DNA from: Cyanidioschyzon merolae
Lineage: Eukaryota
Direction: 5' to 3' (one strand)
Assembly: GCA_000091205.1 (NCBI GenBank)
Contig: AP006491.2
DNA length: 64,000 nt
Below are positions 1-45,750 of this stretch, piece after piece. The position numbers and the translations under genes are program-made. Under the pieces are notes generated by a model. It saw only the letters and a list, made by a program, of their open reading frames with translations, had not been told where the DNA came from and did not search any database. Each line of letters opens with the position of its first letter. Within the stretch, counting starts at the first letter, position 1.

Positions 1-759
1 GATGTGGAAGTTCCGCGTTCGGCACTGGCTCCGGATTGCTCACAATGACATGCTGTTTCGCAGCCTCTCCGAAGCAGCCGAGGGCATCTTCTAGTCGAGG
101 TAGCCGAACGGCCTCCAAGGCCGGTTTTCCACGCTCGGCATCCTGGCCAGCGCAGTAGACAACGGGACCCAAGCCACGAGCCAACAACGCTATCTGTGCT
201 GTTTGCTCGATCGGTAACGCTGCCACAAAGTGCAAGTCTTTCTTTTCAGGTGCAAACTCGACGAGTAACAGTTCACTGCGTGCACTCGAGGAGAGCCCGC
301 TTCTGTACGCGGGTGTCTGTGTCGCGGGCCTGCCGCCCGACGCTACCACGAAACGCACTCTGTTCCGAGCCGCGTCAGACAGCTGCCCTGTACTCCCTGT
401 GAAGACCGGAAGAATGCCGCGGGCGGGTTGTTTGATCCCGATCGCAGCCGAAGCTGTCTCCATGGTGCACGAGGGAGAGGTTCCTGGTGTTCTCTCTGCA
501 CTCAGGACACCAGCATGGTGCAGCTAGATCCTGTTGCTGGTGAAGCGTGCCACGAGCAGCGCACCGTTCAAGCGCAGCGTGCTCGATGCGAAAGCACTGG
601 TAGCTCGCTGGGCGTGTCGGTCGTCCCAGTCGTAGCGTTTTCGCGCACCAGCGGATGAGTTGCAGTGAAGGAGTAGAGCGGCATAGGGTCGAGGCCAGCG
701 GGTACGTCGAAGCTGTCCCAGTACGAATAGTCCATAAAAGTATAGCATCCAATCAACCC

Positions 760-1165
760 TCCGTTCGCCTGAAGCGTACCATGTCCGTTGCTACCCTCTG
801 TCTTCCGTTTCGATGGTACTCCATCCCCAGGTATCGGTAACCAAATGCTTTTTCGCGGTTTATAGAAGAAGCGTTCCGAGCGCGTTGATTTTGAGAAATA
901 AAGAATCTGAGGGAAAAGTATGAAGGCGTGGATTTCGGGTACCCGGTGTCGTCAGGCGCCGGAAATAAACGAACAAAACATCGTATTGCTGCCGACAATC
1001 GAGCGATGAAGAGCAATTGACGAAAAATAGAAGACGGTTGGAGATAGGGGAGAAAAGGTGTTTGTAAGACGGGACGATGACGAGAGTGTAGTGGTTCAGA
1101 AGGGCACGAATGCGAGGAATCCTTGCAGCAGTGCATTCAACAAGAGGCAACAAACGCAAGGAGTT
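760..1165 (+). mobile_element. Right-end fragment (A') of a Fanzor/TnpB-like transposon. It holds the C-terminal RuvC-III region and 3' flank. It abuts the truncated 3' end of copy A tail to tail.
   Basis: The plus strand reads ...TRGNKRKEFVNSW..., which matches the ...GKKRMEFVNRDF(H/N)(A/T)(V/A)IN(V/I)R... block of copies B and C. About 300 bp upstream aligns with the copy C region 21660-22060 at roughly 70% identity. Antisense ORF 860-1159 matches antisense ORF 21806-22069 (MRLLPLVE.T...PRIRAL). Confidence 0.5.
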
Positions 1166-3120
1166 TGTGAACTCGTGGCCTTCTTGCCATTTCCTTTTCG
1201 GTTAGCGCTACGTGCTTTCCTATCTCCCAAGCGGGTCGCTGGCAATTTCCCATCTCGATCCTCTGGAGTTTACAGCCCAGTTCGTGGTGTGTGATTACGA
1301 TGTCCGGAACTCATCTATCGGTATGGTCACGAAACCGTCTGCGCACTCCTTGCACGTTCTTGTCGACGGTGCTGGTATGCTCTCTCTTTGGGTCACCCGC
1401 CGTCCTGCTCCATACGTTACCACGAGCCTCTGACTCTTGTCCTCCTTGAGGACGCTCAACTCATTGAAAAAGCTGGTCAACGCATGCTCCCTTCCCACAA
1501 TACAAGCTCAAACACAGACGAGCTCACGGAAGTTTGGTGTACGCTTTCCACAGCGCCTCGTCATGCGCAGCTTGAGTGTCCATGACCTCTGGAAAATCTT
1601 GAAAATCCGCATGTCGGATCGTCACCTCGCTCATAGCTTCCCTGTGATCCTTCATTCCTGCATTCCATGTCTCAATTTTCTTCCCTGCATTCATGATTCC
1701 CGATTCTCGATAGTATCTCGCGCTCGAGAGCCTCAAAAGTCGCATATCTCTCTGACGTACTCTACCCTCAGTATCATCTTCCGCACGCTTGGGTACAGCG
1801 ATGGTAATGATGTTCGTGTTGCCGGGGTCCGCGCCGACGACAAAGTCGTTCTCCTGCACCTTGTTCGTCGTAGGACACGCCTTCTTGTTATCTTCGTGCT
1901 CCGCCGACGGCGATATCGAGGACGAAACAGGACGAGCTGCCTTCAACTGCCGATCGTGAACACACTAGGATACTCCATCGGTTTCGATGATGCCCGTGAA
2001 TACCGTTTTCTTGCTCGTTTCGAGACGCTCGAAATCGAAGATATTCTTCCAGGGCTTCTCGCGGTTTTCACCGGTGAACCCTGTCTTCCTTACATCGAAC
2101 CCCCGGACAGATCTCCTTCATGATGCCGTAGAGGACTCCGGCGTCGATCGTTCCAAAATCGAACTTGATGATGCATAATGGAACGACGTTGAAGCGCTTC
2201 CCCATTAGGGTCGCCCACCGTTTCAACGACTCTTCGTTTGCTTCCACACCGTGCTCCATATCCGCCTCGGGATCGAGTTGTCGGTCCAGAAACACGAAAT
2301 ATCGCACGACGAGGCGATCGTGTCTTTCCTTGATGTTTTTCAACTCTGATATCTTTTCTGCTGGATTCGGCATCCCCAGCACCGCACGGTGCTCTCCTAT
2401 AACCGCACGGATGACAGAAGCTTCGCTCGTGCTCTCGTTCGACGCCTTCGCTCCGACGAATTCGATCTCATCTTCATTCTGACTATCGTTCGCGATGCCA
2501 TTGATGATGGCCTTTGTCGCTCTGCAAGAGGGGCCCGCGTCCAGCGCAGACACGGCGCGTATCATGAAATGTTCGAGGTTCACGGTCATGCGGTTCTTCA
2601 GGTTCTCGTGGTGCTTCATTGCCCCGTATTCGTAAATATCCGCGTCACCCTTGTATCGAGTACCGTTGGAGCGGTATTTCGCGAAGTTTTCGTGGAGGGC
2701 ATACATTCGCGCATTTCTCCTCGACGTTTCCCGCGTGCCAATCATCAGATGACGAATACAGGTCTTGTCGAAAAATTCTTCCGGAACCTCGACTGTTTTG
2801 GTGTCCATCACGTCGCGATACATATCTCTCGCGATATGCATCAGTGCTACAGCAGCGAAAAGAACACGCATAGAGTGCGACTCGAAACGGGGTCTGATGG
2901 CGTCTCGCAACTTCTGCCTACGTGGATCCTCGATATGTTTGAGAAGACAGGCTTTCACCAGCATCTCGTGGTACTGTCGTCTTTCGTGCAGCTTTTGACG
3001 TAGGGCCTCGCCCTTTTGCTTCTTCGTCCTGTTTCGTTCCTATCCCATTAGCACTGTTTGTCGTTTTTCTCCGCCTGCCGGTAGCAAGGGCCCTTCAGGA
3101 TCCCCGACTTGCACCCGCAT
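1165..3120 (-). pseudogene. Fanzor/TnpB-like RuvC nuclease pseudogene (copy A). It has multiple frameshifts, an early in-frame stop and a truncated C-terminus.
   Basis: Three reading frames are needed to follow the homology with copy B. The frameshift positions differ from those in B, so they are not shared introns. Confidence 0.55.
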
Positions 3121-4150
3121 AGCTTTGCTTTGGCGTTTTTATTTCGTCAAAACGACCGCACGTCTTTTTGGCCTTAGATGAGGGCTTTCTCGGAGGGAGC
3201 GTGGCTTTCGCAAGAAAAACGACATGTGCCCCGATGTGTTACCGAGTAATGAACGCTCAGCGTTTCGCCCGGGGGAGCGATCATCACGTTTCACGATAGA
3301 AAACACTCCTACAATGCGCTTGAACCACGGAGCGCACAGACGAACAAAAATCACCCCTACCCCGATAGAATCGGCAAAAAGCTCGAACGCAAGCGATATG
3401 GTGATATGCCACGTTGCCCAATAGAAGGACGTCGCCAGACGTCCGGTAAAAGTCTTCAATGCTTGGACAAATTGGTTGGTGCTGTTGCATGTGTCTTTTC
3501 TACAAGTGAAACTGAGGCCACCAAATAAATCTTCTAAAGCTATAATAGATGATGATTTCGTCGTTCTCTTCGAGCTCGATCGAACGTACAACGGGCGTCC
3601 TTCACCTCGAATACCCATTGACGCTCCGAGCGTGCCTTGCGAAGCAAGTTTCATCAACTGAACAAACAAACTGACGATCCGGTGGTTCCTATCGATCGTG
3701 ACGTTCCAGGGACTCTGTTATTGCGATTTGGATGGAAGATGCCATTGCTTGAACGATGACTCTTTTTGAGATTGTATCCCAGTGTTTTCAGGATCATAGG
3801 CGCGACTTGGTGAGAAACAGAGACGCCTGTGGCGACTATGATCGTCGCTGTTGCTTTCCGAAAATGGTGATCAACGGATCGTTTTCTAAGATCGACTGCA
3901 AGCGACCTCTATGAATATCGATCTCTGGCACGGAGTGCATCTACATTTTTCTTATAGTTTTCGCCAACCATCTGAGTACGTCGGTATGACTGTCCTAAAC
4001 GAGGAATGCAGTCCTCCTTGGACTGTTCAGAAATGAATGTAAATGCTACATGCAAATCATCTACGATCTACACTATGCATTGCATTGCGATTTCGATCTC
4101 CTAGACATCGCAGCGGAAGTGAAACAGAATTTAGTACAAAGACTACAAGA
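1165..4150 (-). mobile_element. Fanzor/TnpB-like transposon copy A. The nuclease pseudo-ORF runs from about 3120 down to about 1165 on the minus strand, and at least 1 kb of shared 5' element sequence lies at 3139-4150.
   Basis: Minus-strand ORFs 2068-2964, 1524-1946 and 1295-1498 sit in three different frames. They are collinear with copy B at the amino-acid level: [33 protein letters not shown] (a RuvC-I-like DxG motif) and [15 protein letters not shown]. The reconstructed start codon is at 3118-3120 (MRVQVGDPEGP, against B's MEKEVEDPGGP), with an in-frame stop soon after. The 3' end is truncated at about 1165. Region 3139-4150 aligns, reverse-complemented, with 20770-21460 of copy C. Confidence 0.6.
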
Positions 4151-6025
4151 ACGGAAACCTCGGGCCTCTTTGATGGTAGCGTTCACGCATCCGATAGATG
4201 CCAATATGACACATCTGGTGAAAAAGCAGCTAAACATTCGCGTCGATTCGTTTTCTGGGTCTGTTCAGGGCATGGTGCTGGCATGTGCGTGCTGGCACTC
4301 ACCAGCACTCACTGAACGTTGCTTTGCAGTCGCGAAATGCGAAAGCATCCCGCTCCAACGCGAGTTCGCGGTGATGAACTTGTCTTCAGCATCGCTTCCA
4401 AAGTCCGAATGCGACCAGCAAATGCCTCTTCATGGGAAGCTTGCGGCAAATACCATTTCAGTTTGACATGGATGAATTCGTGCTCGACATTTCACGAGTG
4501 CAGCGCAAGAGGTCAATTCACTGTCCGCTTACACCTGTGCATGCGACGGCAACATAGAAACCGCAAACGAGTGCTCTGCATTCATTGGAAATACCCTGCA
4601 GCATAGGCATCTGGATCCCATCCAATCGTTCAGAGCGCTTTTCCGCACGGCGCTGCTGAGGGCGCACTGATCCGTAAAACGCTTGGGATGTTTCGGAAGA
4701 CATCTCGCTGCCTTTCGAGTCGAGCTTGTTGCGAGAGGAAAACCCAGCAGCCGGGGGACGTGCACGAGTTGCGTTTTTGCTATGAGCGCTGCGCGATCGT
4801 CATCGACGAGCATGGTGAGTCCGGCAGCGCCGGCGGACCCCTGTGCTAGGCTCAGGGAGGAGGCGCTGCGCTGCTTCGGGGAAGCCAAGCGCCAGCCTGG
4901 GGCACACGATACCTGTCGCGAAAAGAAAGAGTGCTATCGACGCTGTCGTGACCTTTGGCTGGCCGAAATACGCAAGGCACGACGTGGAGAGCGACTTCCG
5001 AACCCGGCGGTGACGGGCCAAACGCCGGACACCAGCTAAACCTCGCTCTGGGTGGTAATCGTCCGCAACCTGTGCGGCCGACTGGGATGATTTCCACGTT
5101 GAAAGCACCTTTGGACTTTGTTGGCTTTTTGGGGAGTCTTCGCAGATCAGAGCTGTTGTCGTCGAGGTTACCCGCGGCCGCCTGCTCGCTGGTCGGCACT
5201 CGAGTCTGGGGCAGCCTGGTGCAGGCGACGTGCTGCGTTCGCTACAAGCAGCGCGTTCTGCGGTATCCGGAACTTTGTTATTCCAAGACCTCTTTTGGAG
5301 CGCAAGGCGCCACAAGCGGTAACGAGCATCCAGTAGCAAGCAAGCAAGCTGGCAGAGACGCGCCCCCGATAAAGTGCACGTGTGCAAGTATGCCTGCAGC
5401 GCTGCCGTCGACAACGGACTTGTCTCTGTGCAGCCAGTGCATGATACCGATATGCGTCCGTTCACGCTTCGTCTGCATCAGGCCAGCAACTGGTCTGATG
5501 ATATTCTCCAGGCAGCGATTGAGATGAACCTGTCGTGGGGCTGTCTGTTTATGGAAGCGCGCCATGTAGGTATACCTTGTCAAGAGTTGGTCGTGGGAAC
5601 AAGGACGCCTCTCCATTCCGTCGTTTTGCGTCTCGTGTAGTACTCGAATCCGATATCCACCGGTGCATCCAAGGCGCTACGTTCAATGCCGTGGAGCGTG
5701 ACCTCGAGACACTGCCGGGTTCCCGCTTCGTGCGTGCCCTTCCTGAGACTGTTTCGCACCGCGTTTCAACATGTATTCGGAAAGGACGCGTCTTTAGCGC
5801 TGCTCCTCGGTTCCATCCATCACAGTCTGGTCGTGAACAGACGCGTCGAACGTGCGCAGCAGAAACGGGAACCCCGAAAACGTCTCGTTACGAGGCCGTC
5901 TCCGCTGGCCCACAGGCCGTATGATCGCGCATTGCACTACGACCAAGTCAAGCTAAAAGCATGTCGTTTACCATTCGAGGTCTGTGCGACCGCGCGCTCC
6001 AACACGTTAGGTTTTTTAGAGAACA

Positions 6026-6739
6026 TCACTTCCACCACGGATTCTCACCAGTTCGAAAGTCGGTCTCCTTCCAGGGTTTGATCTCTACGAACCCGTCATC
6101 ATCCACTTCGGTATGTGCCAGAGCGAGCGACAGCGGAGCCGGACCGCGCACCACCTTCCCTGTACGATCGTACTGCGAACCATGGCACGGGCAAATGAAC
6201 TTGTTCTGTGCTGCGTTCCAAGGCACCACGCAGCCAAGGTGCGTGCAAACAGCATTCAGTGCGTAGGTTTCGAGCTCGCCGGCGTCGTTCACAACAAGAT
6301 ACGTGGGCTCCCCGTTTAGGCCCTGCACAAGGTCACGAGAGCCGGGGGGATGCGTCTTCAGATAATCCTCCTTCTTGATAGGCGTCCCGAGGGCGTCCTT
6401 TGCAATCACACCGCCTGAGCCTTTGTTCTTCAGTGGCGGCACGAAGAAGCTGGCGTACGTGCCAAGCATGATGCTTGCTGGGAGTCCAACTGAACCCACT
6501 AGAATGAGGTTCAGCAGCGTGCGCTTCCCCATATCTGGGATGTAGTCGTCATCGGATCCCGAGGAGCCGCCACCGCTGCCGCTCCCTCCACGCGCGTCAT
6601 CAACTGTACTCGGCCGCGCAAACGTCATGCGCAGCGCCACGCGCTTCCTGCCCAGCGTTGTAGGCTGGCGTTCGACTGCACCAGGATGACACCGAGACAC
6701 CGTTCTAAACGTAATGCTATTTGTTGTAAGCACGAACAT
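6026..6739 (-). CDS. petC: Cytochrome b6-f complex Rieske iron-sulfur subunit (PetC), nuclear-encoded plastid precursor
   Basis: It carries the Rieske [2Fe-2S] boxes [11 protein letters not shown] and CPCHGSQYD, followed by [14 protein letters not shown]. There is an N-terminal presequence ([14 protein letters not shown]...) and a Gly/Ser-rich linker before the transmembrane helix. Confidence 0.9.
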
Positions 6740-6999
6740 TAGCCAGAGTTATAAACAAAAACGAACCTACAAGTTGAACTCGTAGAAGAACGCAAACGTT
6801 CACACACAACACGAACAAGCAACTCGCCTTGTGATCGTCGACGATGGACGGCAGCGTGCTCGCGATGCAGGGCTTCGGGGGCGCGCGGCGTTGGACGCTA
6901 CCGCCGCCGATGGCGACGCTATAGACGCTGCCGCGTTTTCGCTCGATGTGCCTGCGCTGGAAAAAAGGAACGCTGCTATCGCTTTGAGAGACAGCAACA

Positions 7000-7700
7000 T
7001 CTGGGTATCACTGTGGTAAATGAAGGCCAGCCACTTACTTTGAGTGTAGTACTAGCAACGAATGGTCCCGTAGCTGAGCCCCAGTGCTCGCGAGTGGCCA
7101 GTGAACTCATACTCTACCTTCTAGGTGGAAGGTCCAGTGAACGAGATGCGCACACGGGACCAGTGTTACGCGCACCTACTCACTGGTGGGTGGCAAGCAC
7201 AAGCCCGAGTCGCCAACCGAGGGCGACGCTTTCCGTGTACGATCACGCAGGAGAGAGGCGGCTCCCAGGATTCATCGTAACAGCCAAGTTTCTCCAACGT
7301 GTTGTGCAGCGAAAGCAAGTTTTGCATCCGCAGGCTGTCCGAGCGCAAACTGACGACGAGACCCGATTCTTTGTCGAGTGAAGCACGCCTCGAGCAGACG
7401 CCGTCTGTGGTACGGCAACGCCGTTCTGTTTCTGTGCTACGACAGCACCGGCGCTACAAGCGCTATTGAGGCGGATGTTCACGGGCAGGCACTCGGCGCC
7501 CGATAGCACGTCTGAAACGCCAGTACATCCGAGACGAAGTATGGATTATGAAACTTGGACGTAAGGCGTGGAATGACGAAAGTTTCACCGCGCGCAGGCT
7601 CCAAGCGCACAGAGTCGCGGCACGCTCGCCTGTGTGAGAAGTTTTCACATGGAACAAAATCCGCTGCCTTTGCTGTTGCCGCTGATTGTTCTCCAATGAC
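7000..7700 (+). repeat. Dispersed repeat family R2, copy 1 (about 700 bp, non-coding). It carries an internal 5S-rRNA-like segment on the minus strand at about 7350-7470.
   Basis: Region 7000-7700 aligns, reverse-complemented, with 49690-50360. One 60-bp block, gagaggcggctcccaggattcatc.taacagccaagtttctccaacgtgttgtgcagcg, is nearly identical between copies. Partial copies lie at 13068-13215 and 19109-19320. Confidence 0.6.
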
Positions 7701-7920
7701 AAAACATTTACATGGTATTTGGATTCCAGATAGCGAGATGGATAGGTACTGGTGATCGAAAAAGTGTCCATCGTGATGCACTCTACCTCCATGCCCCATT
7801 ACTTATACTTACTTTCGGATGTACTGATCGTTTTGTGCGTTCTGTAGTGCGCCGAGTGCCTGCTTTGAGCAACCGCCTTAGCGCCTAAACTGCTGAAGCA
7901 GATACTGCACGGAGATAGAA

Positions 7921-8020
7921 CGGCGTTGCCATACCACTGAGGGCGCCGGATCGATGAACGCTTCACCTGATACAGCGTTGGAATGCACAATAATTCTGGG
8001 AGCCTGTAGGCTAAACAGAC
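7921..8020 (+). ncRNA. 5S rRNA-like segment, truncated (about 95 nt). It is probably a pseudogene or a 5S-derived repeat module.
   Basis: The 5' part acggcgttGCCATACCACtgaGGgCGCCgGATC resembles the 5S 5' consensus cTACGGCCATACCACcCTGAAcGCGCCCGATC. The 3' part tCTGGGAgCCTGTAGGCT resembles the 5S 3' end CCTGGGAA...GCTGTAGGCT. The middle is shortened and terminal helix I complementarity is not kept. Confidence 0.35.
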
Positions 8021-8539
8021 ACAACTACTGCCTGCGAAAGCGCGAACCGATATATTAGGAGTCTACTGCGATCCGGGCGACGACCAAACACAGCATCCCG
8101 CGTCTAGTCCCAGAATGAACTGCGTTGCGGACGAGCTGCTCAGGTCTCGCCACAGCGCCCGCTACTGGGGGGAGCACGAAGCACGAGTCTGGGAGACTCG
8201 TCCTGCTCGCGGGACTTTTCGCCTAGAGGGAGGATTCTTCAGAATATGGAAACCTTTTTCCCCGTTTTCAAAGTTTATCGTAGAACGGGAGAGAAATTGC
8301 TGTATCGTTGCTCGCTAGTCGTGAGTCTCTCTTCTTTGTTCTACATAGTGCTGTCGATTTGCGCACCAGGGAGATCTGTCAGTTTCGAGTCACGACGCGT
8401 ATGCTGCCGTTGAAGGGAAACGCGATCCTGATCAATAGCGTGCTGCTCTAATGTGCAAGTTGTACTTGCGTTAAAGACGTAGCAAAGTACAGTTCTTCAG
8501 TTCATTTGTGTCTCAAACCTCAAACAAGTGTATTCAACT

Positions 8540-10900
8540 GTTTTTTCGCAGTATATAACTGAAGCGTTCAAAGTCCGTTACAAAAGATAAAAAAGGAAAG
8601 TTATGGAAAAGGAAGTGGAGGATCCTGGAGGCCCAGTGTGGCTGGCCGCCAGAAAAAAAAACAAAAAAATAGTGCCGAGTCCAGAAGAAAACGAAGCGAG
8701 AAAGAAGCAAAATGGGGGCCCTACGTCGAAGGCTGCAAGAAAGACGTCTGTACAACGAGACGGTGGTGAAAGCCTGTCTTCGTAAACATACCAAGGATCC
8801 GTACAAGGCAAAGTTGCGAGGCGCTATCAGAAACCGTGTCGGGTTGTAATCCATAACGATTATAAAGGGGTCGTCAGTACGAATGCATTTGGCGAGGGAG
8901 ATGTACGAAGACGTGACGCACGTGGAAACAGTCGAGGTTCTGGTCGAGTTTTTCGACAAGACCTCTATTCGTCACCTGATGCTTGGTACGGGGGAATCGT
9001 CGACAAAGAAAGAGCTAGTGCATGCCCTCCACGAAAACTTCGCAGAATTCCGCTTCGAGGGAACTCGATACAAGGGTGACGGAAATATTTACACATGCGG
9101 GGTGATGAAGTACATCACGAACCTGAGGAACCATTTGACTATGAACCCGGAGCGTTTCATGATACGCACCGTCTTTGCGCTGTACTCGGGCCTGTCTCGC
9201 AAAGGAGTATGGGCGATTACCAATGGCATCACGAACGATCGCAAGCATGATGAGATCGAATTCGTCGACAGGAAGGCGTCACGCAGGAGAAGGTTTAAAA
9301 CTTCTGTCATCCGTGCGGTTATACAAGAGCACCGCGCAGTCTTGGGGTTGGCGAATTCAATAGAAAACATATCAGAGTTGGAAAAAGATAAGGAAAGATA
9401 CGATCGCCTCATTCTGCGCTATTTAGTGTTCTTAGACCGAGAACTCGAACGCAAGGCAGAGGTGAAGCTGAGTGAGGAAAAAATGAAGAGTGGAGGAGAC
9501 GGAAGGCTGACCTAATGGGGAAGCGCTTTAACGGCGTTCCGTTGTGCAACACCAAGTCACATTTCGTGAGTATCGACTCCAGACTCTTTTACGGCATCAC
9601 GAAGGAGATCAGTCCCGACTTCAATGTTAGCAGGGAGGACTTCACCGGCGAAAACCGGGAGACGTGCGGTAAGAAAAGTATCTTCTATTTCAAACGTCTG
9701 AAAGTGAGCAAACAAAAGATATTCACTGGGATGATCGAAACCGATGGAGTAGCCATGTGTGCACACTATCGGCGCTTGACGACAGATCGTCCAGTTCCGC
9801 CCGTGACGAAGCATGAAGAGAAGAAGGATGCGGGTCCTGCGATGCAGGAGGTGGAGGATAACGACCTGGTCGTTGACGCGACGAAGCATGAAGATAACAA
9901 CAAGGCGGCTCCTGCGACGCAGAAAGTGCAAGATATCGACTTTGTCGTTGGCGCGGACCCCGGAAACACAAATATCATCACCATCGCAGCACCGAAGTGT
10001 GCGGAAGATGGTACTGACGGTAGTTTACGTCAGAAAGACATGCGTCTATTGAGGTTCTCGAGAGCTAGATACTACCGAGAATCGGGAATCATGAATGCGG
10101 GGAAGAAAATCGAGAGCTGGAATTCAGGAATGAAGGATCACCTAGAAGCTTTGAGCGAGGTGACGAGCCGCGGAGCCGACATTGAAGCTTTTCGGGAGTC
10201 CATGGAAGGTCCGCGTTGCTCATTGGGATACGCTGTGGGAAGAGTACACCAAGCGCCGGTGGGCTCGTCTGCGTAAGAATCTGTATTGTGGTAAGCAACG
10301 TGCATTTGCCAACTTTTTCAATGCGTTGAGCGCCCTCAAGGAGAATGAAAGTCAGAGGCTCGTCGTAGCGTACGGAGCAGAGCGCTGGGCGTCCAAAAAA
10401 GGGACTACACCAGCTCCGTCGACAAGAACGTACAAGGAGTGCGCACGGCGTTTCGCTACGATACCTGTAGACGAGTTCCGAACATCGTATACACACCACG
10501 AACTGGGGTGTACGCATCACAGAGTGGAGATGGAAACGTGCCAGAGGAGTCCTGAGGATATAAAAAAATACGGAGCGCTGATGGAGGGGCAAATGGAAAG
10601 GAGGGCGAAATTTAGCGGATTGCTTGCATTAGTAAGTACACTCAATGATGGCAAGAAACGGATGGAATTCGTGAACAGAGACTTTCACGCAGTGATCAAT
10701 GTAAGATGTGCGGTAATGGAGAAAAGGCCTCGATACTGGACACGAGAGAACTTTGTTGGACAACCTCTCAAAGTGGAACTATATAAGAAAAAGCTGGAAG
10801 CAGTAATGGGTGGCCGGTCCAAAAAAACTGGGAGGCGTCAGCACATCAGTTAGAGACGATTTGTCTAGGGCGCGTTCGCCGCCACTGCTGAACACCGTCG
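8540..10900 (+). mobile_element. Fanzor/TnpB-like transposon copy B (divergent subfamily) with a decayed nuclease ORF
   Basis: ORFs 8603-8785, 8883-9515, 9515-10276 and 10182-10853 lie in alternating frames. Together they reconstruct a protein of about 750 aa with [17 protein letters not shown] (RuvC-I), [42 protein letters not shown] (a degenerate Zn-ribbon position) and KRMEFVNRDFHAVINVRCAV (RuvC-III, RDxNAAxNI-like). Amino-acid identity to copy A is about 55-60%. Sequence upstream of the start codon (beyond about 60 bp) is unrelated to copy A. Confidence 0.6.
8603..10853 (+). pseudogene. Fanzor/TnpB-like RuvC nuclease pseudogene (copy B). It has at least three frameshifts and one in-frame stop.
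   Basis: The frames are 8603 to 8712 (+1 to 0), a stop near 8835, a shift at 9515 and a shift near 10190. Part of the acidic N-terminal segment is tandemly duplicated ([24 protein letters not shown] / [24 protein letters not shown]). Confidence 0.55.
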
Positions 10901-11029
10901 GCGTCGTTCGACTTTTGCAAAGTGTTCGGTATCGGTGTCGGTGACGGTGTCGGTGCGGTGTGCGTTTCAGTTGCTGCCCTGCGCTTTCGAGCATCAGCTT
11001 ATATAACTCTGTGCACACGTGAACTGCCA

Positions 11030-13067: not shown

Positions 13068-13215
13068 CCATAGGTAATGTAACTTGGAAGTCGGGGATTT
13101 GATGGATACCTCACCGTGCACTGAAAAAAAACACACAAAAAAAGTCAGAAAAGAAAAAGCGCACCATCGGAGAACGCCGGCCTAAGCAAACGTCTCGTCC
13201 GTGGAAGCGAAATCG
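13068..13215 (+). repeat. R2 repeat, partial copy (core with A-rich stretch)
   Basis: The sequence taggtaatgtaacttggaagtcggggatttgatggatacctcaccgtgcactgaaaaaaaacacacaaaaaaagtcagaaaagaaaaagcgcaccatcggagaacgcc aligns with 19150-19290 and with the reverse complement of 49700-49840. Confidence 0.55.
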
Positions 13216-13634
13216 ATCCCGCACCAGCGTCCATCTGCTGCGAGATTGAGATGTCCGTTATAGCCAGATTCGTGTCCTAGCCCAGTGCGTCGTTTCGCGC
13301 CTAAATCGCCACCAGAGGCGCGAAACGACGCACTGCATCCGGATGCCGCACTGCGGCCTGTACGGCTGACGGTGCGTTGCGCACGTTGCGCGCGTTGCAG
13401 CTACAAAACGTTGGCAGTGTCCGTTTGGAAACAGCGTTCCTGGACGTACGTAGCTCGCTAGCTCGCTAGCAAGCAAGGTATATTTTCTCAAGCGGTTGAA
13501 TACACTCCCTGAATCCAGGGAGTCGCACGCTTCAAGCGACAGGTCGCTGCTACAGGTGCGGACACTACTGAGCTGCGCACCGTGGACACGTCTGCGTTGC
13601 GCTAGCGTGGCCTCTACTCGTCAAAGAAACCCCC

Positions 13635-15185
13635 ATGGGTGCCTCGTCGGATATGGTTACGGATAGGAGCACAGTCACTGCTACGGAAGCGGAGGTTGGT
13701 CGTCAGGGTCGGGCGGGGCGGGCGCTCTTCGTTGCTGGGTCACCTCCGGTGTACAGCACGTTTCACCACAACGGTGGTGCGGTGTCCATTGTAAGCGCAC
13801 CGACCGGGAGTCGCGGCCTTTCGACAACGATAGCGGCCTCGTCGAGCGGCGCTTACCCCACAGCGAGTCCGTTTACGCCAACAGCGTCGCCGAGTGCGGG
13901 CACAGAGGGGCTTGGGCGCCCGTCGTCGGCGCCTGCGGGCGCCAGCGTCCTGAATGGAAGTTTTTTCGGGCGCTCTGTGGGCTTTAAGCTGCCTACGAAT
14001 AAACAGAGCGCGATTTCGTCGGCGCGGGGAGGCAGCGGTGCCATCAGCGATAGCAATGCCGTCAACGGTATGCTGGCGCTGGACGTCAAGGAGGGAAGCC
14101 GAGTCTCACCGCCGCGACGCGGCTCGACGACAGACGCCAGAAGTTGCCTGGAGTGTCCGTCAGACTGGACTGTAAGCGAGCTCGCCGCGCGGCTTGTCTC
14201 GGAACCTGATGGATGCAAAGCGACGGAGTGTGCCTGGAGTCCGCAGGTATCGGGTAGCATACCGCCGCGCTCGCCAGCGGCCTATCGGCATACGCAGACA
14301 GGCGCTGTTCCAGAACGAGGCCGAGACCATCCAGCAGGCACGAACCTGCTGGACTCGCATCGGATGTCGAGTCCTGGTATCGACCCGTCGCAGGAGTTGA
14401 TATCCGTCGACAGCGACTGGATACCTGCTTCTGCTTCCTATTCAGCTGTTAGCGTGATGTCATTCTCGCCGAGCGGCAACGAGGTGGCCCGAATGGATCT
14501 GGGCCGCTCGTCCCCGTTCCGAGGGCTCTCGTTCGATGATCTGAGTATTATTGAGCGTTCACCGCGCAAAGAACGTTTAGCGCAAATGCTGCTGTCCACA
14601 CGTGGCAACAACGTGCGACGTTTCTCGCGTTCACCGCTCGGCGCGACGCCCCTGTTTAGCACCAATCCCGGGTCTCTAGCCGATGCCTCGGCGAGCGAAG
14701 ACACGCGTTCGTGTCGCGTCTGTGGTGGACGACGCATACGGCCTTGTTTCGACTGCAACGGACGTGGTCAATTTCAGCGCATTGAAGTCCAAAACCATGT
14801 TGTAGGCGGTGAAACGTGTCGCGCATGCCGCGGCACAGGTATGATCGACTGCCCCGCCTGTGCTCGAGAGTTGTATAGAAAAGCGCGTGCAGCAGCCGAA
14901 ATCAAGCTTGAAACCGCCACCCGTGATCAAGCGGCACCAGTCTCGCTGCCCGCTGCATTGACATCACGACAACATGAACCAGCGGCTGCCACGCCTCATG
15001 CCATGGGAACGGAAACCGCGTCGGCGCACAGCGTGCAGGATTCGCTTGCCGCTGCCGCGACAGAGCATGTGGTATCCAGCGTCTCTGCGAATGCTGAATG
15101 GGAACCCCAAACCTCAAACGTTGCGGTTGGAAAGCTGACAACATGTACAACAGACGGCCATGGTCTGATTCCGCTCTCCTCGTGA
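13635..15185 (+). CDS. DnaJ-type CxxCxGxG zinc-finger domain protein with a long Ser/Ala/Pro-rich N-terminal region
   Basis: The C-terminal CRVCGGRR...CFDCNGRG...CRACRGTG...CPAC block is four CxxC(x)GxG repeats, typical of DnaJ-like Zn fingers. The rest is low-complexity. The ORF is 516 aa. Confidence 0.55.
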   Translation: MGASSDMVTDRSTVTATEAEVGRQGRAGRALFVAGSPPVYSTFHHNGGAVSIVSAPTGSRGLSTTIAASSSGAYPTASPFTPTASPSAGTEGLGRPSSAPAGASVLNGSFFGRSVGFKLPTNKQSAISSARGGSGAISDSNAVNGMLALDVKEGSRVSPPRRGSTTDARSCLECPSDWTVSELAARLVSEPDGCKATECAWSPQVSGSIPPRSPAAYRHTQTGAVPERGRDHPAGTNLLDSHRMSSPGIDPSQELISVDSDWIPASASYSAVSVMSFSPSGNEVARMDLGRSSPFRGLSFDDLSIIERSPRKERLAQMLLSTRGNNVRRFSRSPLGATPLFSTNPGSLADASASEDTRSCRVCGGRRIRPCFDCNGRGQFQRIEVQNHVVGGETCRACRGTGMIDCPACARELYRKARAAAEIKLETATRDQAAPVSLPAALTSRQHEPAAATPHAMGTETASAHSVQDSLAAAATEHVVSSVSANAEWEPQTSNVAVGKLTTCTTDGHGLIPLSS

Positions 15186-15722
15186 CTCGCTGGCCAGGCG
15201 TTGAGACATCTCCGCATGCTCAATGCGTATCATACGGACCGGTGATACAGTGCAAGCACGCTGGCGCTACATACCTTTCACAGGGCAGCAGGCTGAAATG
15301 GACAACGTATCCTACGCAAGACAATCGAGTTTACAGTGGTTCCTCTGGGTGGCTCGTAGTACGAGAAGCCTCCGCTCGCCATGAGCTATGAGCGCGCGTT
15401 CACGCGGCGAGCACGTCCTCCTCCTCCTCCTCCATGCACACAGGTCCGCCGCAGCCCTGTGCTCAATCATCCCCATATCCATGAGCGCTGGCGACGAGGC
15501 ACCTCCTATCTCATTGGAAATCGCTACGAGTCGCTTTGCAGACAGTTTGCATCACGAGCTGCACAGGAGCGATCGCGTGCGTCGGTCGCACGACGCATCT
15601 CATCTACCGACCGTATGGATAATTGTGTGTCGATACAGTCCCACGAATGTATCGTTGTGTTCTAGTCATGTAAAGATTACGCGAAACATCGTGAGCGCAC
15701 TGATCAGTGGCGTTGCCGGTGC

Positions 15723-18650
15723 TTATTCCAACCAGAGCATCGGCTCTAGCGTGACATTCGGCGTCGCCTGTTCCAGCAGCGCCTGTGAGGCAGATCCCGG
15801 GATACCGCTTCGATCGCAGGCGAGCAGCGTCGCCAGGACTTCGACATGATCCGAGGCGCTCGGCTGCGATGGTGTTGTCGAGCGCTGCGTCAGCAGTTGC
15901 AGACGCAATCCCTCGAGGCGGGCAGCCGCGGTTTCCCGCCAGCCTGCGCGCAAGCCCGCCGCTAGAAACTCGGACGTGCGCAAAAACTGCAACAGACGCC
16001 CGACGCAAATCACCGGGATGGAAGGCATCGCTTGTTCCGATGCCGATTGCGCTGACGCGTTTCCGTTGCCAGCGGCTGGAGTGTGGACAGGGAGCTCCAG
16101 CGGTGCCTGGGAAAACGCGGCCGCCAGATGGCGACCGAGCGCGTGCCCGGCGCGATACAGCGCTCGCTGGGCGATGCGGTTCCCGGTTGGCGCCCGCATG
16201 TTCGTGCCAGCCTGCTCGGCAACTAGGTAGCCGAACTCTACCATCCGGCAGCGAGGCAGTGGTCCGCGATACAGGCAATGCAGCAGCGTTTCCAGATCTG
16301 CGCACGCAAAATGTGTCAAGGCGAGCGCGAGCAGTTCATCGGCAGCTGCCTTGCAGGCCGCACGATCCCACGGCTCACTCGAGCACTCAAAGCGCATGCC
16401 GTCGAGGGCACACAGCGCATACCGCAGCGCATCCAGACCGAGTACAAAGGGGGAACCCTCGTCTCCAAGTAGTGGACCATAGCCTCCGATTCGAATATCT
16501 AGGCCACCGGCGATGTCAGCGGAGACACGAAGATCCTTGCGCATGCGCGGATCGGCGACCAAGCGACACAGACAGCCGCGCTCGCTGGAAAGCAGCAGTA
16601 GCGCGATACCTTGGCGCGATGCGACTGGGTCAGCGGGCGCACTGTGGCCGCGGATGGTGCCTCCGCTGCCTGCGAGCATGCTCAGCGGTGACGGCCGCAG
16701 CACGCTGATAAGCGGGAGGTTCACTTCATCCCAGCAGACGACCGTTACAGGGCAATGAAAGCGCCACTCGAGACGCTCGGCTACTGCACGTTGATCCGCG
16801 CTTGATCGTAGACTATCGATGACGAGGCCAATCCCAGCGAGGCGATAGTCCGCAGCGATCGCTCGTCGTCGTCGTGATTTGCGTCCACAACGCTGAGCGA
16901 TTTGGCAGAGCACACTGCCCAGGTTGAACGCGTCGAAGGTGTCGTGCCAGTCGCCATCCAAGCTCGCATCATTAGCGGGCCCGAGATGCGAGCCCTCTCT
17001 ATCGCTTGCCTGCAGACAGCAACGAATCCAGTCCGAAAGACGGCGCTGATAGGCTTGCATCGTACCATCCCGGTGGTGCAGCGGTGCCTGCCCGGAGCCA
17101 GTGCGACTGCAACAGCACGCCCGCGGCTCCATGCCGCCGTCGCCGTCGCCGCTGCTGTTTGTTGTCACCGTGCAGCTGCGACTCGGGGAAACGCGACGGC
17201 ACCGTGTGCGATAAATGTTTGCTAACGCATACGCTTCTAGCAAAAGTATTTCCACTGCCTGGAGCAGGCGTTCCATCGGCGTTGCGTCCTGTTGTCGCTT
17301 TTGTTCTGAACTGAACGACAAAGCTTTTTCAGTGAACTGGGCCAAGAAGCGACATGCTGGCATATGCAGCCTCGGCGTGCTCGCGTGCGCCGGCGCTTCG
17401 GATATCTCAGCCACACCTGGGCGCGTAGGGTATTCCTCATTCGCACTAGACTCGGCGACTGCACCCAGCTGGGGTTCGCCAGCCTCGTCGCCGCCTAAAA
17501 GGTCATCGTGTGCGTCCGCACCAAACGAAGATGACGTAACTGCAGTTAATGGATTCGCGAGTAGCGCCGACGATGCCGTCATGTACGGTACTACGAGCAG
17601 GTCGACGTCGTCGACGTCGAAATTCGCGTCCACCGGCTCCAGGAAATCCGTTCCCTCGCCAGCAACCGATTCAAACCAATGCGGTTCGGTGTCCTGCACA
17701 CGACTTGCAATGGCATCGTTCCCGCGTTTCCGGCGCTGGCCAGTCCCGGTTGTCGCCAGAAATCCATCCGATTGCGTTGGCGCTTGTGTTCGGCGTTGGT
17801 TCGCTGATTCACTAGATGGGCGCTCCTCGAGCGGCCCTGTACTTGGCGAGGACGGAATCGTGCACGTCGACGAAGACGAGGCCTTGGTCGGCCTCCCGCA
17901 GCAATCGAGACCACGAGCGACCCTAGCAGGCTCCGATGCCGGTGGCGGTGTTGCGTAACTGCAGAAGCTGCGCACGCCATCCTGAGGTAGCGTGCTCGAC
18001 AACCCTGTCGCAACGTTGCCAAGCTCTTCGTATGCCTCGTACTGGTCCAGCTCCCGCGGTAGCGATACTTGCTCATAGAACCAGGGATGCGTCACGCTAT
18101 CCGGGTTTTGAAGCTGCACATAAAACGAGTCACCCCGGGATTGCATCGCGCACGACGGGTATCTCGAGCTGCTGTTACGACCTACAGTCCGACCGGAACG
18201 CTGACTCGCGCAGGCGCCAGCGACTGCAGCGCCGATCCCTGGTCCAGTGCTGCAGGAACAACGCGCGTGCTGCTCCCGCAGTGCGAGCGTTCCCTTCGTG
18301 CTTTTCCCCCCGGAACCAGGGTCCACACCAGTTTCGCGGCTATGTGCACAGTTACAACGCAGCGCGTCTGTAACGTCTACGAGCGCCACATGACACTCGC
18401 GGCCGCGTATCGCCAAGCCCAGCACCACGACGCACGTGTCAGTTTTCCCTCCTAATTCGTCATCATCCCTGCCCACTTGATTTCGCAGCCCCGGTGCTTT
18501 CTTCGTCATAATAAGCACAAGCAACCTAGAAATAACGAATAACGGCTCTCTTACAGGCACCGTCACGAGTTGTATGGCACCACTTGTCGAGGCGGTACCT
18601 GCGCAGCGCGCCCGCCATACCACTCCCACTCGACGACCGTACCAGCGCAC
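15723..18650 (-). CDS. Large protein (975 aa) with a C-terminal N-acetylglucosamine-kinase-like (BadF/BadG/BcrA/BcrD-type) ATPase domain and a low-complexity N-terminal extension of about 500 aa
   Basis: The C-terminal GGYGPLLGDEGSPFVLGLDAL (compare NAGK GWGxxLGDEGSAYWIG), NRIAQRALYRAGHALGRHLAAAF and PVICVGRLLQF match the NAGK family layout. The phosphate-2 position reads LLSSERGC instead of GTGSNC, so catalytic competence is uncertain. Confidence 0.45.
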   Translation of the reverse strand: MRWYGRRVGVVWRARCAGTASTSGAIQLVTVPVREPLFVISRLLVLIMTKKAPGLRNQVGRDDDELGGKTDTCVVVLGLAIRGRECHVALVDVTDALRCNCAHSRETGVDPGSGGKSTKGTLALREQHARCSCSTGPGIGAAVAGACASQRSGRTVGRNSSSRYPSCAMQSRGDSFYVQLQNPDSVTHPWFYEQVSLPRELDQYEAYEELGNVATGLSSTLPQDGVRSFCSYATPPPASEPARVARGLDCCGRPTKASSSSTCTIPSSPSTGPLEERPSSESANQRRTQAPTQSDGFLATTGTGQRRKRGNDAIASRVQDTEPHWFESVAGEGTDFLEPVDANFDVDDVDLLVVPYMTASSALLANPLTAVTSSSFGADAHDDLLGGDEAGEPQLGAVAESSANEEYPTRPGVAEISEAPAHASTPRLHMPACRFLAQFTEKALSFSSEQKRQQDATPMERLLQAVEILLLEAYALANIYRTRCRRVSPSRSCTVTTNSSGDGDGGMEPRACCCSRTGSGQAPLHHRDGTMQAYQRRLSDWIRCCLQASDREGSHLGPANDASLDGDWHDTFDAFNLGSVLCQIAQRCGRKSRRRRAIAADYRLAGIGLVIDSLRSSADQRAVAERLEWRFHCPVTVVCWDEVNLPLISVLRPSPLSMLAGSGGTIRGHSAPADPVASRQGIALLLLSSERGCLCRLVADPRMRKDLRVSADIAGGLDIRIGGYGPLLGDEGSPFVLGLDALRYALCALDGMRFECSSEPWDRAACKAAADELLALALTHFACADLETLLHCLYRGPLPRCRMVEFGYLVAEQAGTNMRAPTGNRIAQRALYRAGHALGRHLAAAFSQAPLELPVHTPAAGNGNASAQSASEQAMPSIPVICVGRLLQFLRTSEFLAAGLRAGWRETAAARLEGLRLQLLTQRSTTPSQPSASDHVEVLATLLACDRSGIPGSASQALLEQATPNVTLEPMLWLE

Positions 18651-18858
18651 GACGGTGCCATCGGTCAGCCCGTACCGTTCACCGTATCGAAGCTATTCAT
18701 ATCCATTCAAACCGGCGGCTTACCTTCCTATGCATCCCAGCGCTTCATATCTCTGCAAGTGTCAGTTTTAGCGACCGGTTGTCACATGCAGAAATTTTGC
18801 AAAGCACCTTTGGCGTCATGTAGATGCAGCGGCGGCGGCGGCGGCGGTGGTAATGCAT

Positions 18859-18910
18859 GCACGCATCTGCGTGTCCGCTACGTGTGCAGCGCATCGCGAT
18901 GCGTGCGATC
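18859..18910. promoter_or_regulatory. Palindromic GC-rich motif (gcacgcatctgc ... gcagatgcgtgc-like arms) about 210 bp upstream of the NAGK-like gene. A second copy sits upstream of the TPS gene.
   Basis: Compare 18859-18910 gcacgcatctgcgtgtccgctacgtgtgcagcgcatcgcgatgcgtgcgatc with 37883-37935 gcacgcatctgcatgccgacgacgtgtccaacagcacgcagatgcgtgcgatg. The arms are inverted repeats. Each copy lies 5' of a divergently placed gene start. Confidence 0.35.
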
Positions 18911-19108
18911 GGAGACGCAGGCGCGCGCGCCCCGTGCGGATCGGTGCGAAGGGTCGCGATCTGGCGACGCACAGCATCGCCGCTGCGCTGCGCGTTTGCA
19001 TCGGGTGCTGATCCTCGAGCCGACGCCCTCTGTGGTATAGAAAAGCTGTTCTTGCTCAATGAAGTATCTGCTCCAGCGGCTAAGTTCCCAAGGCGGATGA
19101 TTAGGTTA

Positions 19109-19320
19109 GGTACTAGGCACACACGACAGGACGTACGAAACGACCAGAATATCCGAGAAGAAGTATAGGTAATGGAACTTGGAGGTAGGGCGTTTGATAG
19201 ATACTCCACCTCGCACTGAAAAAATAACACAAAAAAGTTTGAAAAGAAAAATGCGCATCATCGGAGAACGCTGGCACAAGTAAACGTTTTGTCCATGAAA
19301 AACATCCGGTGCTGATGCGC
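19109..19320 (+). repeat. R2 repeat, partial copy
   Basis: ggcacacacgacaggacgtacgaaacgaccagaatatccgagaagaagtataggtaatggaacttggaggtagggcg...gaaaagaaaaatgcgcatcatcggagaacgctggcacaagtaaacgttttgtccatgaaaaacatc is the reverse complement of 49693-49870. Confidence 0.55.
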
Positions 19321-20769
19321 GTCGCCACGTGCGCCAATGCATGCATGCGGGCGCCGCGGGAGGCTCTCGCCAGGCTCGGGAGCGCGCCCCCATGTGTCAG
19401 GTGTTGGCGCTGATCGGATCGAGTCACCGGCGTATGCGTGGGTGCGTGCGTGTGCGTGTCTGTATGTGGATGAGTATGGAGGTTGCAGATGGTGCCGCTT
19501 GCTGCCGATGAAGCATTCGCTGGAATATCCTTGTGGCGTCGTTGCAGCTGACGTGTTATTTTCGCTACTTATCAGTTAGCGCACGGCAGCGTAGAACGTG
19601 GTCATTTTGGCGTTCGAGAGCCCGCTCGAAGCGGTGTACAGGAAGCGCAGTTGAGCTTGTGAGACGGGAACGTCTATGTTAGTCCAATGTTGCTGACCTG
19701 GTTGTCGTTCTGGATGCGGTTGTGCTGTGCGGGAAGCGCTTCGTGCCATTGCCGGCTCATCCCGAATTCGGCTGGGACCGGTGCGTGGTACGTGGATGTA
19801 TGCTTTGCATGCCATCAAGACTGAAGGATTTCGCACTTGCCATCTCCTGTCGAGGCTTTTTTAGGTCGTCTGCAACCAGCTGAACGTTGACTGTGTGTAG
19901 GCGTCTCAGCGCGGATGGTTTTTTTTGATCCGTTATGCGCAATCTCATGGCCAAGTTGTTCGGGCGCTGGGCAGGCGCCGACACATCAGCGTGTCCAGCA
20001 TGGGGACAGGCGCCTGGAGCAGGTTCGCCATCCGATTGGTCACCCGTTGGACTGCTGCACCCTATGGTTTCTACAGGAAGATGAATCCAGGGCTGAATGA
20101 ACGTAGAGTCCATCGAAGCTGACCAGCGGTCTCTCGCCCGACTTCAGACTCCAATCCTGTATCCGAAGATAATATCTGGATCGATGGAGCGATCTTGCAG
20201 CCTCGGAAAACTCAGCGCAGACCGTGAACACTCGCGGTATACCTGCATTGCCCCGCAGCAGCATGCGCATCCCGCGCTCGGGCAGTGCAAATGAAGTAGA
20301 CTCGGTATTCAGTGGGAACATGGTTGTCGCCAGACATTTGTGCAACGCCGCCCGTATGCATACCTGGACGGTAGGATTGCCCGAGCAGTTTCCGTCGCAG
20401 GAAGCGTGCGAGGCATACGTGCAGCGTGGCTGGACAGGGTCCCGGGCGGGCGGCCTCTGCTGCAGGGTGAGTCTGGAACGACGCTTCTCGTAACGCTCAA
20501 GCGCATCGTGCTGTCGATTCGCGTCAGGGATCAGACGATCGCATGAAGCATATGAACAGTGGGAGTCTTGGAAGCGTTTGTGGGCGCACGACCTCCGAAT
20601 TGAGCCCTGCTGCTGCTATCCTTTGTATTGAACGCTGTACTGTCCGGGATTTCAGGCCTTTTTCGTGCGCCGCGTCATGTGCTGGGTGTAGCCGTGCGCG
20701 ACGCGTACGCGGCGGTCCTGACGCGCTGCAGCACTACGAGGTTAGAGGCGCTCGACTTTATTGTGTTTC

Positions 20770-22140
20770 ACTTTCGCTGCGTCGATGCGAATGGTACTGC
20801 GCATTGCGTAGGAGGAGATCGAATTCACGATGCAGTGTACCGTATAGATTGTGGACGCATCGCCTATAGGATATATATACTTGTCTGAGCAATGCACGGA
20901 GGACCGCATTCTTCATTTAGGTCAGTCATACCATACTAGTCAGATTGATGAGGAACACTGAAAGAAACAAGTAGATGCGCTCTGTGTCAGAAATTGGTAT
21001 TCTTAAAGATCGCTTGAAGTCGATAGTAGAAAACGACCTGTTCAGCAAGTCATGAAGAGCAAAAGCGACAATAATAGCCATCATGGGCGTCTCTGTTTCT
21101 CAACTGCTCTTTCGTGTCGTCCTGTAAACACTGGGATACAGTCGCAAAAAGCGAGTCCAGTTACATGTACGACCATCTTCCACCGAAATCGCAACTAGCA
21201 CAGAGTCTCTGGAACTCAGCGATCGGTACGAGGCACCGCATCGTCTGTTTGTTTCTCCAGTGGATGAGACTTGTTTCGGAAGGCACGGTCGGAGTGTATA
21301 ACGATATTCCCGGAGAAGGGAGCCCGTTGTACGTACGATCCAAGTCGAAGAGAACGACCACATCATCATTTGTTCTGGATGGAGTGGATTCATGTGTTGG
21401 CATCCGTTTCACTCGAACAGGAGGCGCATACAACAGCATCAATCGCTTTGCTGAATGATTGAAGACGTTTCCCTGACACCTGGCGAGGTCCTTCTATTCG
21501 ACAACGTGGCACTTCACCATTCCCTTTGCGGTCGAGCTTTTTTCTCTTCTATCTGGTAGAACTGCTTTTCATTCCTCCGTACGCTGCATGATTCAATCCC
21601 ATCGAATAAGTGTTTTTCTATCGTGAAACGTAGTGATCGCTCCAGTGGGCGAATCCCTGAAGAGTGTTTACCACGGTGACAAAATGAGGAACGTTTCGTC
21701 TTTCTTCCGCAAGCCCTTCTCGCTCAGGGAAGGTCCTCACCTAATGCCATAAACAAGTGCGTTCGTTTTTGAAGGACAAAAACCCAAGGGAAAGGCATGC
21801 ACATGTTAGTCAGGGATCCTGGCGGGTCGATGTCGCGGGCTACCAGGAAAAACGACAAAATTCTCTTCTCGCCTACCATCGAGCGAAGATGCGCAAGTAT
21901 CCGAGAAGAATAGGGGATATAGGCAATGAAACGTACTTGCCCGAAAGTATGACGACGAGACTGCAGTGGCACAGAGGGCACGAATTCGAGGACTCCTTTC
22001 ATCGGTGAGTTCCACCAGCGGCAATAAACGCATGGAGTTCGTGAACCGAGACTTTAACACCGCCATCAATATCAGACGATGTGTGGTGCTGAAAATTAGG
22101 ACCGACCGGCTGACGAGAGCGAATCTCCTGGGCTAGCCCC
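20770..22140 (+). mobile_element. Fanzor/TnpB-like transposon copy C. It is an internally deleted (non-autonomous) derivative that keeps the 5' element region and the 3' RuvC-III-encoding end.
   Basis: Region 20770-21460 aligns with the reverse complement of 3139-4150 (copy A upstream region). Region 21660-22060 aligns with 760-1165. The terminal ORF fragment reads ...SSTSGNKRMEFVNRDFNTAINIRRCVVLKIRTDRLTRANLLG*. The central nuclease coding region is missing. Confidence 0.5.

Positions 22141-45619: not shown

Positions 45620-45650
<31 letters not shown>

Positions 45651-45719: not shown

Positions 45720-45750
<31 letters not shown>

Follow-up and report, generated by a model that had tools for sequence, protein, structure and literature searches.

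Repeats on Cyanidioschyzon merolae chromosome 9 as decayed copies of CMe-1A, a family with a Fanzor1-type RuvC nuclease gene

A window of 64,000 nucleotides from chromosome 9 of Cyanidioschyzon merolae 10D (contig AP006491.2; the window is the whole stretch analyzed here) contains several related but broken copies of one long coding sequence, and the question raised by this locus is which element they derive from and what its protein would do. A reading made from the DNA letters without database searches (the sequence-only reading) had proposed a multi-copy transposon family encoding a Fanzor/TnpB-like nuclease with a RuvC domain. The family is in fact already published: it is CMe-1A, which is listed in the 2013 paper that defined Fanzor (Bao and Jurka, Mob DNA 4:12, PMC3627910). 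The repeats are very probably decayed insertions of CMe-1A and of a sister subfamily, the sole gene of which encodes a 734-amino-acid RuvC endonuclease of the Fanzor1 type.

One element was found in the window as a single near full-length copy (B), one copy truncated at its 3' end (A) and two internally deleted copies (C and D). A self-BLASTN comparison, together with a repeat search, confirmed the earlier proposal of a repeat family with at least four copies or fragments. Copy A (minus strand, 1179–3024) aligned with copy B (8702–10604) at 74.5–77.5% identity (E 0 to 8e-162), the region upstream of A (3057–4102) aligned with 20813–21859 at 73% identity, and the fragment at 1076–1172 aligned with 21951–22046 at 80% identity. 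Copy B occupies 7696–10924 on the plus strand (3229 bp, both ends being read directly from the sequence) and comprises a 5' region resembling the repeat TE-N2, a Fanzor1 pseudogene and a 3' tail ending in GCAAAGTG. The pseudogene (8603–10853, plus strand) starts with MEKEVEDPGG, is interrupted by three frameshifts (near 8700, 9480 and 10206) and an in-frame stop near 8850, and ends at a premature stop at 10851–10853. In a TBLASTN search with the published 734-amino-acid CMe-1 protein, copy B was recovered as four segments in frames 2, 3, 2 and 3 with 72–84% amino-acid identity, and copy A was recovered as two reading-frame segments. Copy A (1150–4102, minus strand), a member of the second subfamily, is truncated at its 3' end near consensus position 2872. 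Its open reading frame (ORF) remnant (1143–3120, minus strand) carries frameshifts and stops, and six-frame translation of the C-terminal part showed in-frame stops and further frame changes. The decay of A and B by frameshifts and stops, already described in the sequence-only reading, was therefore evident from both TBLASTN and six-frame translation.

Copy C (20813–22205, plus strand) comes from the A-type subfamily and has lost an internal part. Its 5' part is the A-type region at 20813–21859, which extends to consensus position ~969, and its 3' part is C-terminal coding sequence at 21957–22205, covering amino acids 640–723 and including NRDFNTAINI (22044–22073, plus strand). Fragment D (842–1172, plus strand) is likewise internally deleted; here 842–976 corresponds to consensus positions 833–969, while 1076–1172 is the C-terminal coding part and ends after KEFVN (1158–1172, plus strand). 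The sequence-only reading had found the right loci, and the peptide motifs it quoted were all recovered where it had placed them, but its limits were too narrow: element B reaches from 7696 to 10924 and not just across the ORF, copy A extends to 4102, and the two C-terminal fragments, although real, are parts of the larger C and D. Copies A, B, C and D are pseudogenes. Together with an older relic, E, described below, they are non-functional as a result of frameshifts, stops, truncations and one internal deletion held in common. The truncated 3' ends of copy A (minus strand) and fragment D (plus strand) were seen to abut tail to tail at ~1172–1179, so that homologous stretches of C-terminal coding sequence lie in a short inverted arrangement at this junction (1140–1200).

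The relationship of these copies to CMe-1A was studied by comparison with the published consensus. CMe-1A is the one Fanzor1 family listed for C. merolae in PMC3627910, which describes ~150 copies, each ~80% identical to a ~3-kb consensus, and for which terminal inverted repeats (TIRs) were not found, target-site duplications were not determinable and no transposase is reported. The same paper notes that the consensus resembles the repeat TE-N2_CMe over its 5' 635 bp and that some copies are still intact, and its supplement gives a 3169-bp consensus and the 734-amino-acid CMe-1 protein. BLASTN against this consensus aligned copy B over positions 3–2195 at 83.6% identity and 2122–3145 at 87.9% identity, while 21974–22091, within copy C, corresponded to positions 2840–2960. 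Copy B, at 84–88% nucleotide identity over positions 3–3145 and with the TE-N2-like 635 bp at the 5' end present, is thus a CMe-1A element. It shares with the published consensus the organism, the 734-amino-acid protein encoded and the lack of TIRs, since no inverted repeat joining the element ends was found in copy B or in the intact metagenome copy L004. Copy A, in contrast, matched only positions 871–2872 (80.6% identity) and has a different 5' region, and is therefore assigned to a sister subfamily rather than to CMe-1A in the strict sense. Divergence from the consensus was 12–16% for B and ~19% for A, similar to the ~20% reported in the paper. Copy A and fragment C differ from the consensus by an alternative 5' region of ~940 bp, and C and D by an internal deletion; neither the alternative 5' region nor the deletion variants appear in the accessible text of the Bao and Jurka description.

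Segmental duplication or rearrangement of one ancestral locus, instead of transposition, could account for the tail-to-tail contact of A and D near 1175 and for the parts that A, C and D have in common and that are absent from B. However, the genes flanking each copy are different, BLASTN detected no flank homology beyond the ends of A, B, C and D, the copies diverge from one another by 20–27%, the element is present at dozens of unrelated metagenome loci, and the published count for the genome is ~150 copies (PMC3627910). Such an origin is very improbable, and the copies are read here as separate insertions of a mobile family.

Close relatives of the protein were plentiful in the hot-spring metagenomes of the Joint Genome Institute (JGI) in a word-indexed protein search. 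One of these, P0001, is intact with 752 amino acids, and P0042, P0043 and P0044 are three complete relatives with 37–46% identity. In an exhaustive phmmer search with P0042, E ≤ 0.001 was reached by 1,265 cluster representatives. Profile searches and structure prediction had both been named in the sequence-only reading as checks on the Fanzor/TnpB-like assignment. A Pfam scan of the ORF fragments and the intact homologues returned nothing significant, but a profile (A5) derived from 61 full-length family members of diverse sequence matched the solved Fanzor1 chains among the PDB sequences, namely Parasitella parasitica PpFz1 (3.7e-26), Spizellomyces punctatus SpuFz1 (7.2e-19) and Guillardia theta GtFz1 (7.8e-16). 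These matches spanned all three RuvC motifs, and the match to ISDra2 TnpB was weak (E = 0.1). A narrow profile of nine sequences gave no match to the PDB sequences, and the precomputed label carried by the relatives was a weak one, domain of unknown function DUF8286.

An AlphaFold2 model based on the A5 alignment had a predicted local distance difference test score (pLDDT) of 89.8 and a predicted template modelling score (pTM) of 0.86; a first model, built from a shallow alignment, was poor (pLDDT 47) and was discarded. A Foldseek search of the PDB with the retained model placed Fanzor1 structures in all of the top seven positions (E 9e-18 to 7e-16, ~670 aligned columns), led by SpuFz1 (E = 9e-18, template modelling score 0.65–0.73, full length) and followed by PpFz1 and GtFz1. 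Cas12f, Cas12 variants, Fanzor2 and TnpB were far lower (E 1e-5 to 1e-3). The predicted fold is that of Fanzor1, with WED, REC, split RuvC and TNB, over the whole protein, and the family is closer to the characterized Fanzor1 proteins than to TnpB or Fanzor2. The Fanzor/TnpB-like identity was thus borne out by the A5 profile, by the AlphaFold2 and Foldseek comparison and by the alignment of catalytic residues given below. SpuFz1 (PDB 8GKH, 9CEU–9CEZ), PpFz1 and GtFz1 share the catalytic D/E/D residues and the rearranged RuvC-II with CMe-1, and SpuFz1 matches its fold over the full length, although sequence identity is only 12–15%. Elements of SpuFz1 have 30-nucleotide inverted repeats (PMC10432273), whereas CMe-1A has none, and the omega-RNA known for these three proteins is a prediction from homology in CMe-1. 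ISDra2 TnpB (PDB 8EXA/8H1J) and Cas12f have the RuvC/TNB core in common with CMe-1, with RDxNAAxNI aligning. The similarity of TnpB to CMe-1 is, however, marginal; in TnpB the RuvC-II Glu stands at its canonical position and the REC domain is much smaller, and TnpB resides on prokaryotic IS200/IS605 elements with TnpA.

The element has no TIRs and no clear target-site duplication, and its 3'-terminal palindromic hairpin and T-rich flanks loosely recall the ends of IS200/IS605. On these grounds the element could be of the IS607 or IS605 type, with a TnpA recombinase, and its protein could be a Fanzor2 or a TnpB of prokaryotic type. That this is so is highly unlikely, as the structural matches to Fanzor2 (9b0l, E = 4.7e-4) and TnpB (8h1j, E = 6.4e-4) stand against 9e-18 for Fanzor1. 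In addition, only one ORF is present in the 3.2-kb element, with no second long ORF seen and no recombinase-specific search made, and the published description likewise mentions no transposase (PMC3627910). An unrelated transposase or DUF family with a chance resemblance to RuvC motifs, which the lack of a significant Pfam family, the sole and weak label DUF8286 and the unmatched nine-sequence profile might suggest, is scarcely credible, being refuted by the strong A5 matches to Fanzor1 across all three RuvC motifs and by the end-to-end Foldseek match of the predicted fold, and the authors who defined Fanzor themselves list CMe-1 as Fanzor1 (PMC3627910).

The active site expected of a Fanzor1 endonuclease was sought in the same alignment of 61 sequences. 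Fanzors have a rearranged site, in which the canonical RuvC-II position holds an inert residue and a compensating Glu lies tens of residues downstream (PMC10530073). The CMe-1 clade has an invariant Gly in VVAYG and a Glu 33 residues downstream in VDEFRTS. HMMER alignment placed the three acidic residues on positions 777, 935 and 1000 of the MBP-SpuFz1 chain, equivalent to SpuFz1 D383, E541 and D606, which are metal-binding catalytic residues (PMC10432273, PMC11423790). With P0042 numbering, D398 (DPG), G536 (VVAYG), E569 (VDEFRTS), R635 (NRD) and N642 were invariant (61/61), and D636, the Asp of NRD, was kept in 60/61. The D/E/D positions, on the conservation of which the sequence-only reading had made its proposal depend, are accordingly retained across the family. 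Judged from the aligned residues, the clade has the RuvC D-E-D triad with the rearranged RuvC-II of Fanzors. In an intact member the active site would be built from the Asp of GADPG, the Asp of NRDFNAAINI and, in VDEFRTS, a Glu that lies ~33 residues downstream of the canonical RuvC-II position, where Gly is found.

The codons for this triad are still present in copy B, although the ORF is broken. The RuvC-I motif lies at 9950–9979 on the plus strand in B (Asp codon 9956–9958, SpuFz1 D383) and at 1806–1835 on the minus strand in A. VVAYGAE, the canonical RuvC-II strand with Gly where TnpB has Glu, is found at 10362–10382 (plus strand) in B. VDEFRTS follows at 10467–10487 (plus strand; relocated catalytic Glu codon 10473–10475, SpuFz1 E541), and copy A has IDEFRTS at 1298–1318 (minus strand). 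HHELGC is located at 10494–10511 (plus strand) in B and 1272–1289 (minus strand) in A, and the RuvC-III motif of B, NRDFHAVINV, at 10674–10703 (plus strand; Asp codon 10680–10682, SpuFz1 D606). The sequence-only reading had RuvC-I and RuvC-III right, in line with SpuFz1 D383 and D606. Its RuvC-II Glu, however, was assigned to the central block YYRESG...DHLEAL (with a 15-residue stretch at 10070–10114, plus strand, in B and 1671–1715, minus strand, in A), which is a misplacement because the Glu of VDEFRTS aligns with SpuFz1 E541 and Gly occupies the canonical site. It had also taken the VDEFRTS region, which holds the catalytic Glu, for the position of a zinc ribbon.

The family-wide behavior of the coding sequence was assessed on JGI metagenome contigs, a scan of which confirmed 295 related stretches. 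Codon-position statistics were drawn from 35 non-redundant copies spanning the ORF. The first, second and third codon positions had variabilities of 0.098, 0.083 and 0.148, compared with 0.18–0.19 in the non-coding parts, and the contrast was greatest in the RuvC half. These values indicate that purifying selection acted on the protein as the family diversified. An uninterrupted ORF of at least 734 amino acids with all three motifs was found in only 2 of the 35 non-redundant copies. Examples of the rare intact ORFs are L004 (778 amino acids) and L015 (758 amino acids).

Several results weigh against the Fanzor1 reading. The only Pfam match was faint (E = 0.23) and paired NRDFNAAINIR with the last part of PF07282 (Cas12f1-like TNB). 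The Fanzor motif of 2013, D-X-[TS][TS]-X-X-[C4]-X-RD, has a C4 zinc finger before RD (PMC3627910), and this C4 zinc ribbon is absent here. Between the catalytic Glu and RD (P0042 570–634), CxxC is absent from 55/61 relatives and from CMe-1, most having one or two Cys there, and the region is confidently modelled despite the loss. The CMe-1 clade differs in this from SpuFz1, PpFz1 and GtFz1, in which the TNB region carries a CxxC...CxxC zinc ribbon, and the ribbon described as degenerate in the sequence-only reading is in fact missing from the whole clade. As the C4 motif is lacking, the assignment to Fanzor1 relies on homology and on the inclusion of CMe-1 in that group by the authors who defined it. 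At the 3' end, nucleotide conservation was flat over the last kilobase and lower in the 59-nucleotide tail, the tail evolved at a neutral rate, and third-codon-position variability did not drop at the ORF 3' end. The last 286 nucleotides folded no better than shuffled sequences (z = -0.5 for the intact copy and +0.8 for copy B), RNAalifold on 41 non-redundant 3' ends gave only one short GGCG...CGCC hairpin, and the covariation of the 3'-terminal hairpin, measured as pair counts, was no better than that of shuffles. What the analysis does demonstrate is the homology, the fold, the conserved catalytic triad, the multi-copy mobility and the family-wide purifying selection, whereas guidance of the nuclease by RNA is predicted.

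With conservation, folding energy and covariation all null, the omega-RNA that the sequence-only reading had expected at the 3' ends gained no computational support, and an Rfam search gave no match. At the end of most copies there is a palindromic hairpin, CGTCGTTCGA-CTT-TCGAACGGCG or CGTTTTTC-TTTT-GAAAGGCG, followed by TT. Because its pair counts do not exceed those of shuffles, the hairpin is treated as conserved sequence rather than demonstrated structure. The 3'-end data neither prove nor exclude an omega-RNA, which is predicted by Fanzor1 homology. It was also observed that the terminal hairpin is 8–10 bp long and stands directly at the 3' terminus (10893–10924 in the window, and the 3' ends of L003–L082), before TT(T/G).

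CMe-1A has neither a transposase nor TIRs and carries one gene, for a 734-amino-acid Fanzor1, a eukaryotic endonuclease of the TnpB/Cas12 type whose single RuvC domain is split. If they act like the homologous SpuFz1, GtFz1 and PpFz1, the proteins of intact members would bind an omega-RNA transcribed from the 3' end of the element and would cut DNA beside a short adjacent motif. The 5' flanks were found to be T-rich and the 3' flanks to start with TT(T/G). The 5' terminus (GACAAAACG) is complementary over 9 nucleotides to the region of the stop codon; this was considered as an asymmetric TIR and was rejected as chance-level and not conserved among copies. An empty site for copy B was sought in contigs that carry the identical RACK1 gene, most of which are interrupted within the element. 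Three short metagenome contigs with identical RACK1, L089 (1181), L090 (1113) and L092 (105), diverge 5–9 nucleotides past the end of copy B (10924–10933), each into a different upstream sequence, so that the comparison yielded no target-site duplication. The divergence could mark the start of transcription, combined with chimeric assembly, or could stem from real rearrangements.

The combination of intact ORFs, purifying selection, the lack of TIRs and of a transposase, the 3' hairpin and T-rich sites could point to a mode of end recognition or mobilization that is as yet undescribed for Fanzor1 elements. It is a speculative and on balance rather unlikely suggestion that the CMe-1 lineage is a still-active Fanzor1 clade without a zinc ribbon in thermoacidophilic red algae, and that it moves in such a way. 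Were it true, mobilization could be single-strand (HUH-like) transposition or could depend on the Fanzor, and the clade could be a source of an RNA-guided nuclease that is adapted to heat and acid and has an unusual TNB domain.

The second subfamily was explored through its 5' region. In copy A this region (3161–4102, minus strand) is unrelated to consensus positions 1–870, and it is also present in copy C (20813–21755, plus strand). The window from 4102 to 1179 aligned with metagenome contig L075 in a single high-scoring segment pair of 2941 bp at 70.5% identity, and the A-type 5' region of ~940 bp was colinear with L075 and L077 (2961–3842), the Fanzor of which has 52% amino-acid identity to P0001. 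This colinearity with a divergent lineage indicates a sister subfamily. In both C and D the 5' part ends at consensus position 969, and both resume in the C-terminal coding region. The 5' breakpoint that they have in common suggests that an internally deleted, non-autonomous derivative was itself copied and propagated. A further variable feature is a 75-bp tandem duplication, encoding 25 amino acids, directly upstream of RuvC-I in copy B (9802–9955, plus strand), for which Tandem Repeats Finder gave a period of 75, 2.0 copies and 80% matches. Among family members this repeat was observed with one to five units, P0001 and P0009 having four to five.

A heavily decayed copy from a second, divergent Fanzor1 lineage resembling P0042, relic E, was detected at 29244–31231 (plus strand), beyond the range covered by the sequence-only reading. 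TBLASTN matched it to P0042 at 26% identity over 470 amino acids (E = 7e-23) and 40% over 128 amino acids (E = 1e-20), and to CMe-1 at 24–29% identity. Its catalytic motifs are destroyed, DEF having become EAI and NRDFNAAINIRK having become HPVLKVSIDIRK.

As CMe-1A has been published since 2013 and the copies in the window are dead, the locus adds little biology and is of modest residual value, although the Fanzor1 elements were recognized correctly from raw sequence alone. What is added is the sister subfamily, the deletion derivative that was mobilized and a second, older lineage of Fanzor1 in a genome for which the 2013 paper lists only one Fanzor1 family. A clade that lacks the zinc ribbon but has the catalytic triad may also matter for the mining of compact or thermotolerant nucleases.

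Other repeats in the window were noted. Four short pieces matched the 5' module of CMe-1A (consensus positions 84–350) by BLASTN. One is a ~200-bp module common to the CMe-1A 5' region (consensus 86–282) at 7362–7563 (minus strand), inside the repeat at 6948–7569, and further copies of the module lie at 19012–19189 (minus strand), 26260–26606 (minus strand) and 49807–50007 (plus strand). A separate repeat family of ~770 bp was observed at 6948–7569, 13070–13222, 19013–19308 and 49691–50458 and on metagenome contig L001 (4397–5167); its ~200-bp module corresponds to consensus positions 84–282, and the family may be related to TE-N2_CMe. Four long ORFs of the window gave proteins identical to GenBank entries of strain 10D, all on the chromosome 9 contig, namely the Rieske subunit of cytochrome b6f (BAM80139), RACK1 (BAM80140), CMI284C (BAM80141) and CMI288C (BAM80143). 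A (TCGGTG)n microsatellite occupies 10926–10961, between copy B and RACK1, and an array of ~100–115-bp repeats rich in GCT and GAT triplets is present at 45261–45770.

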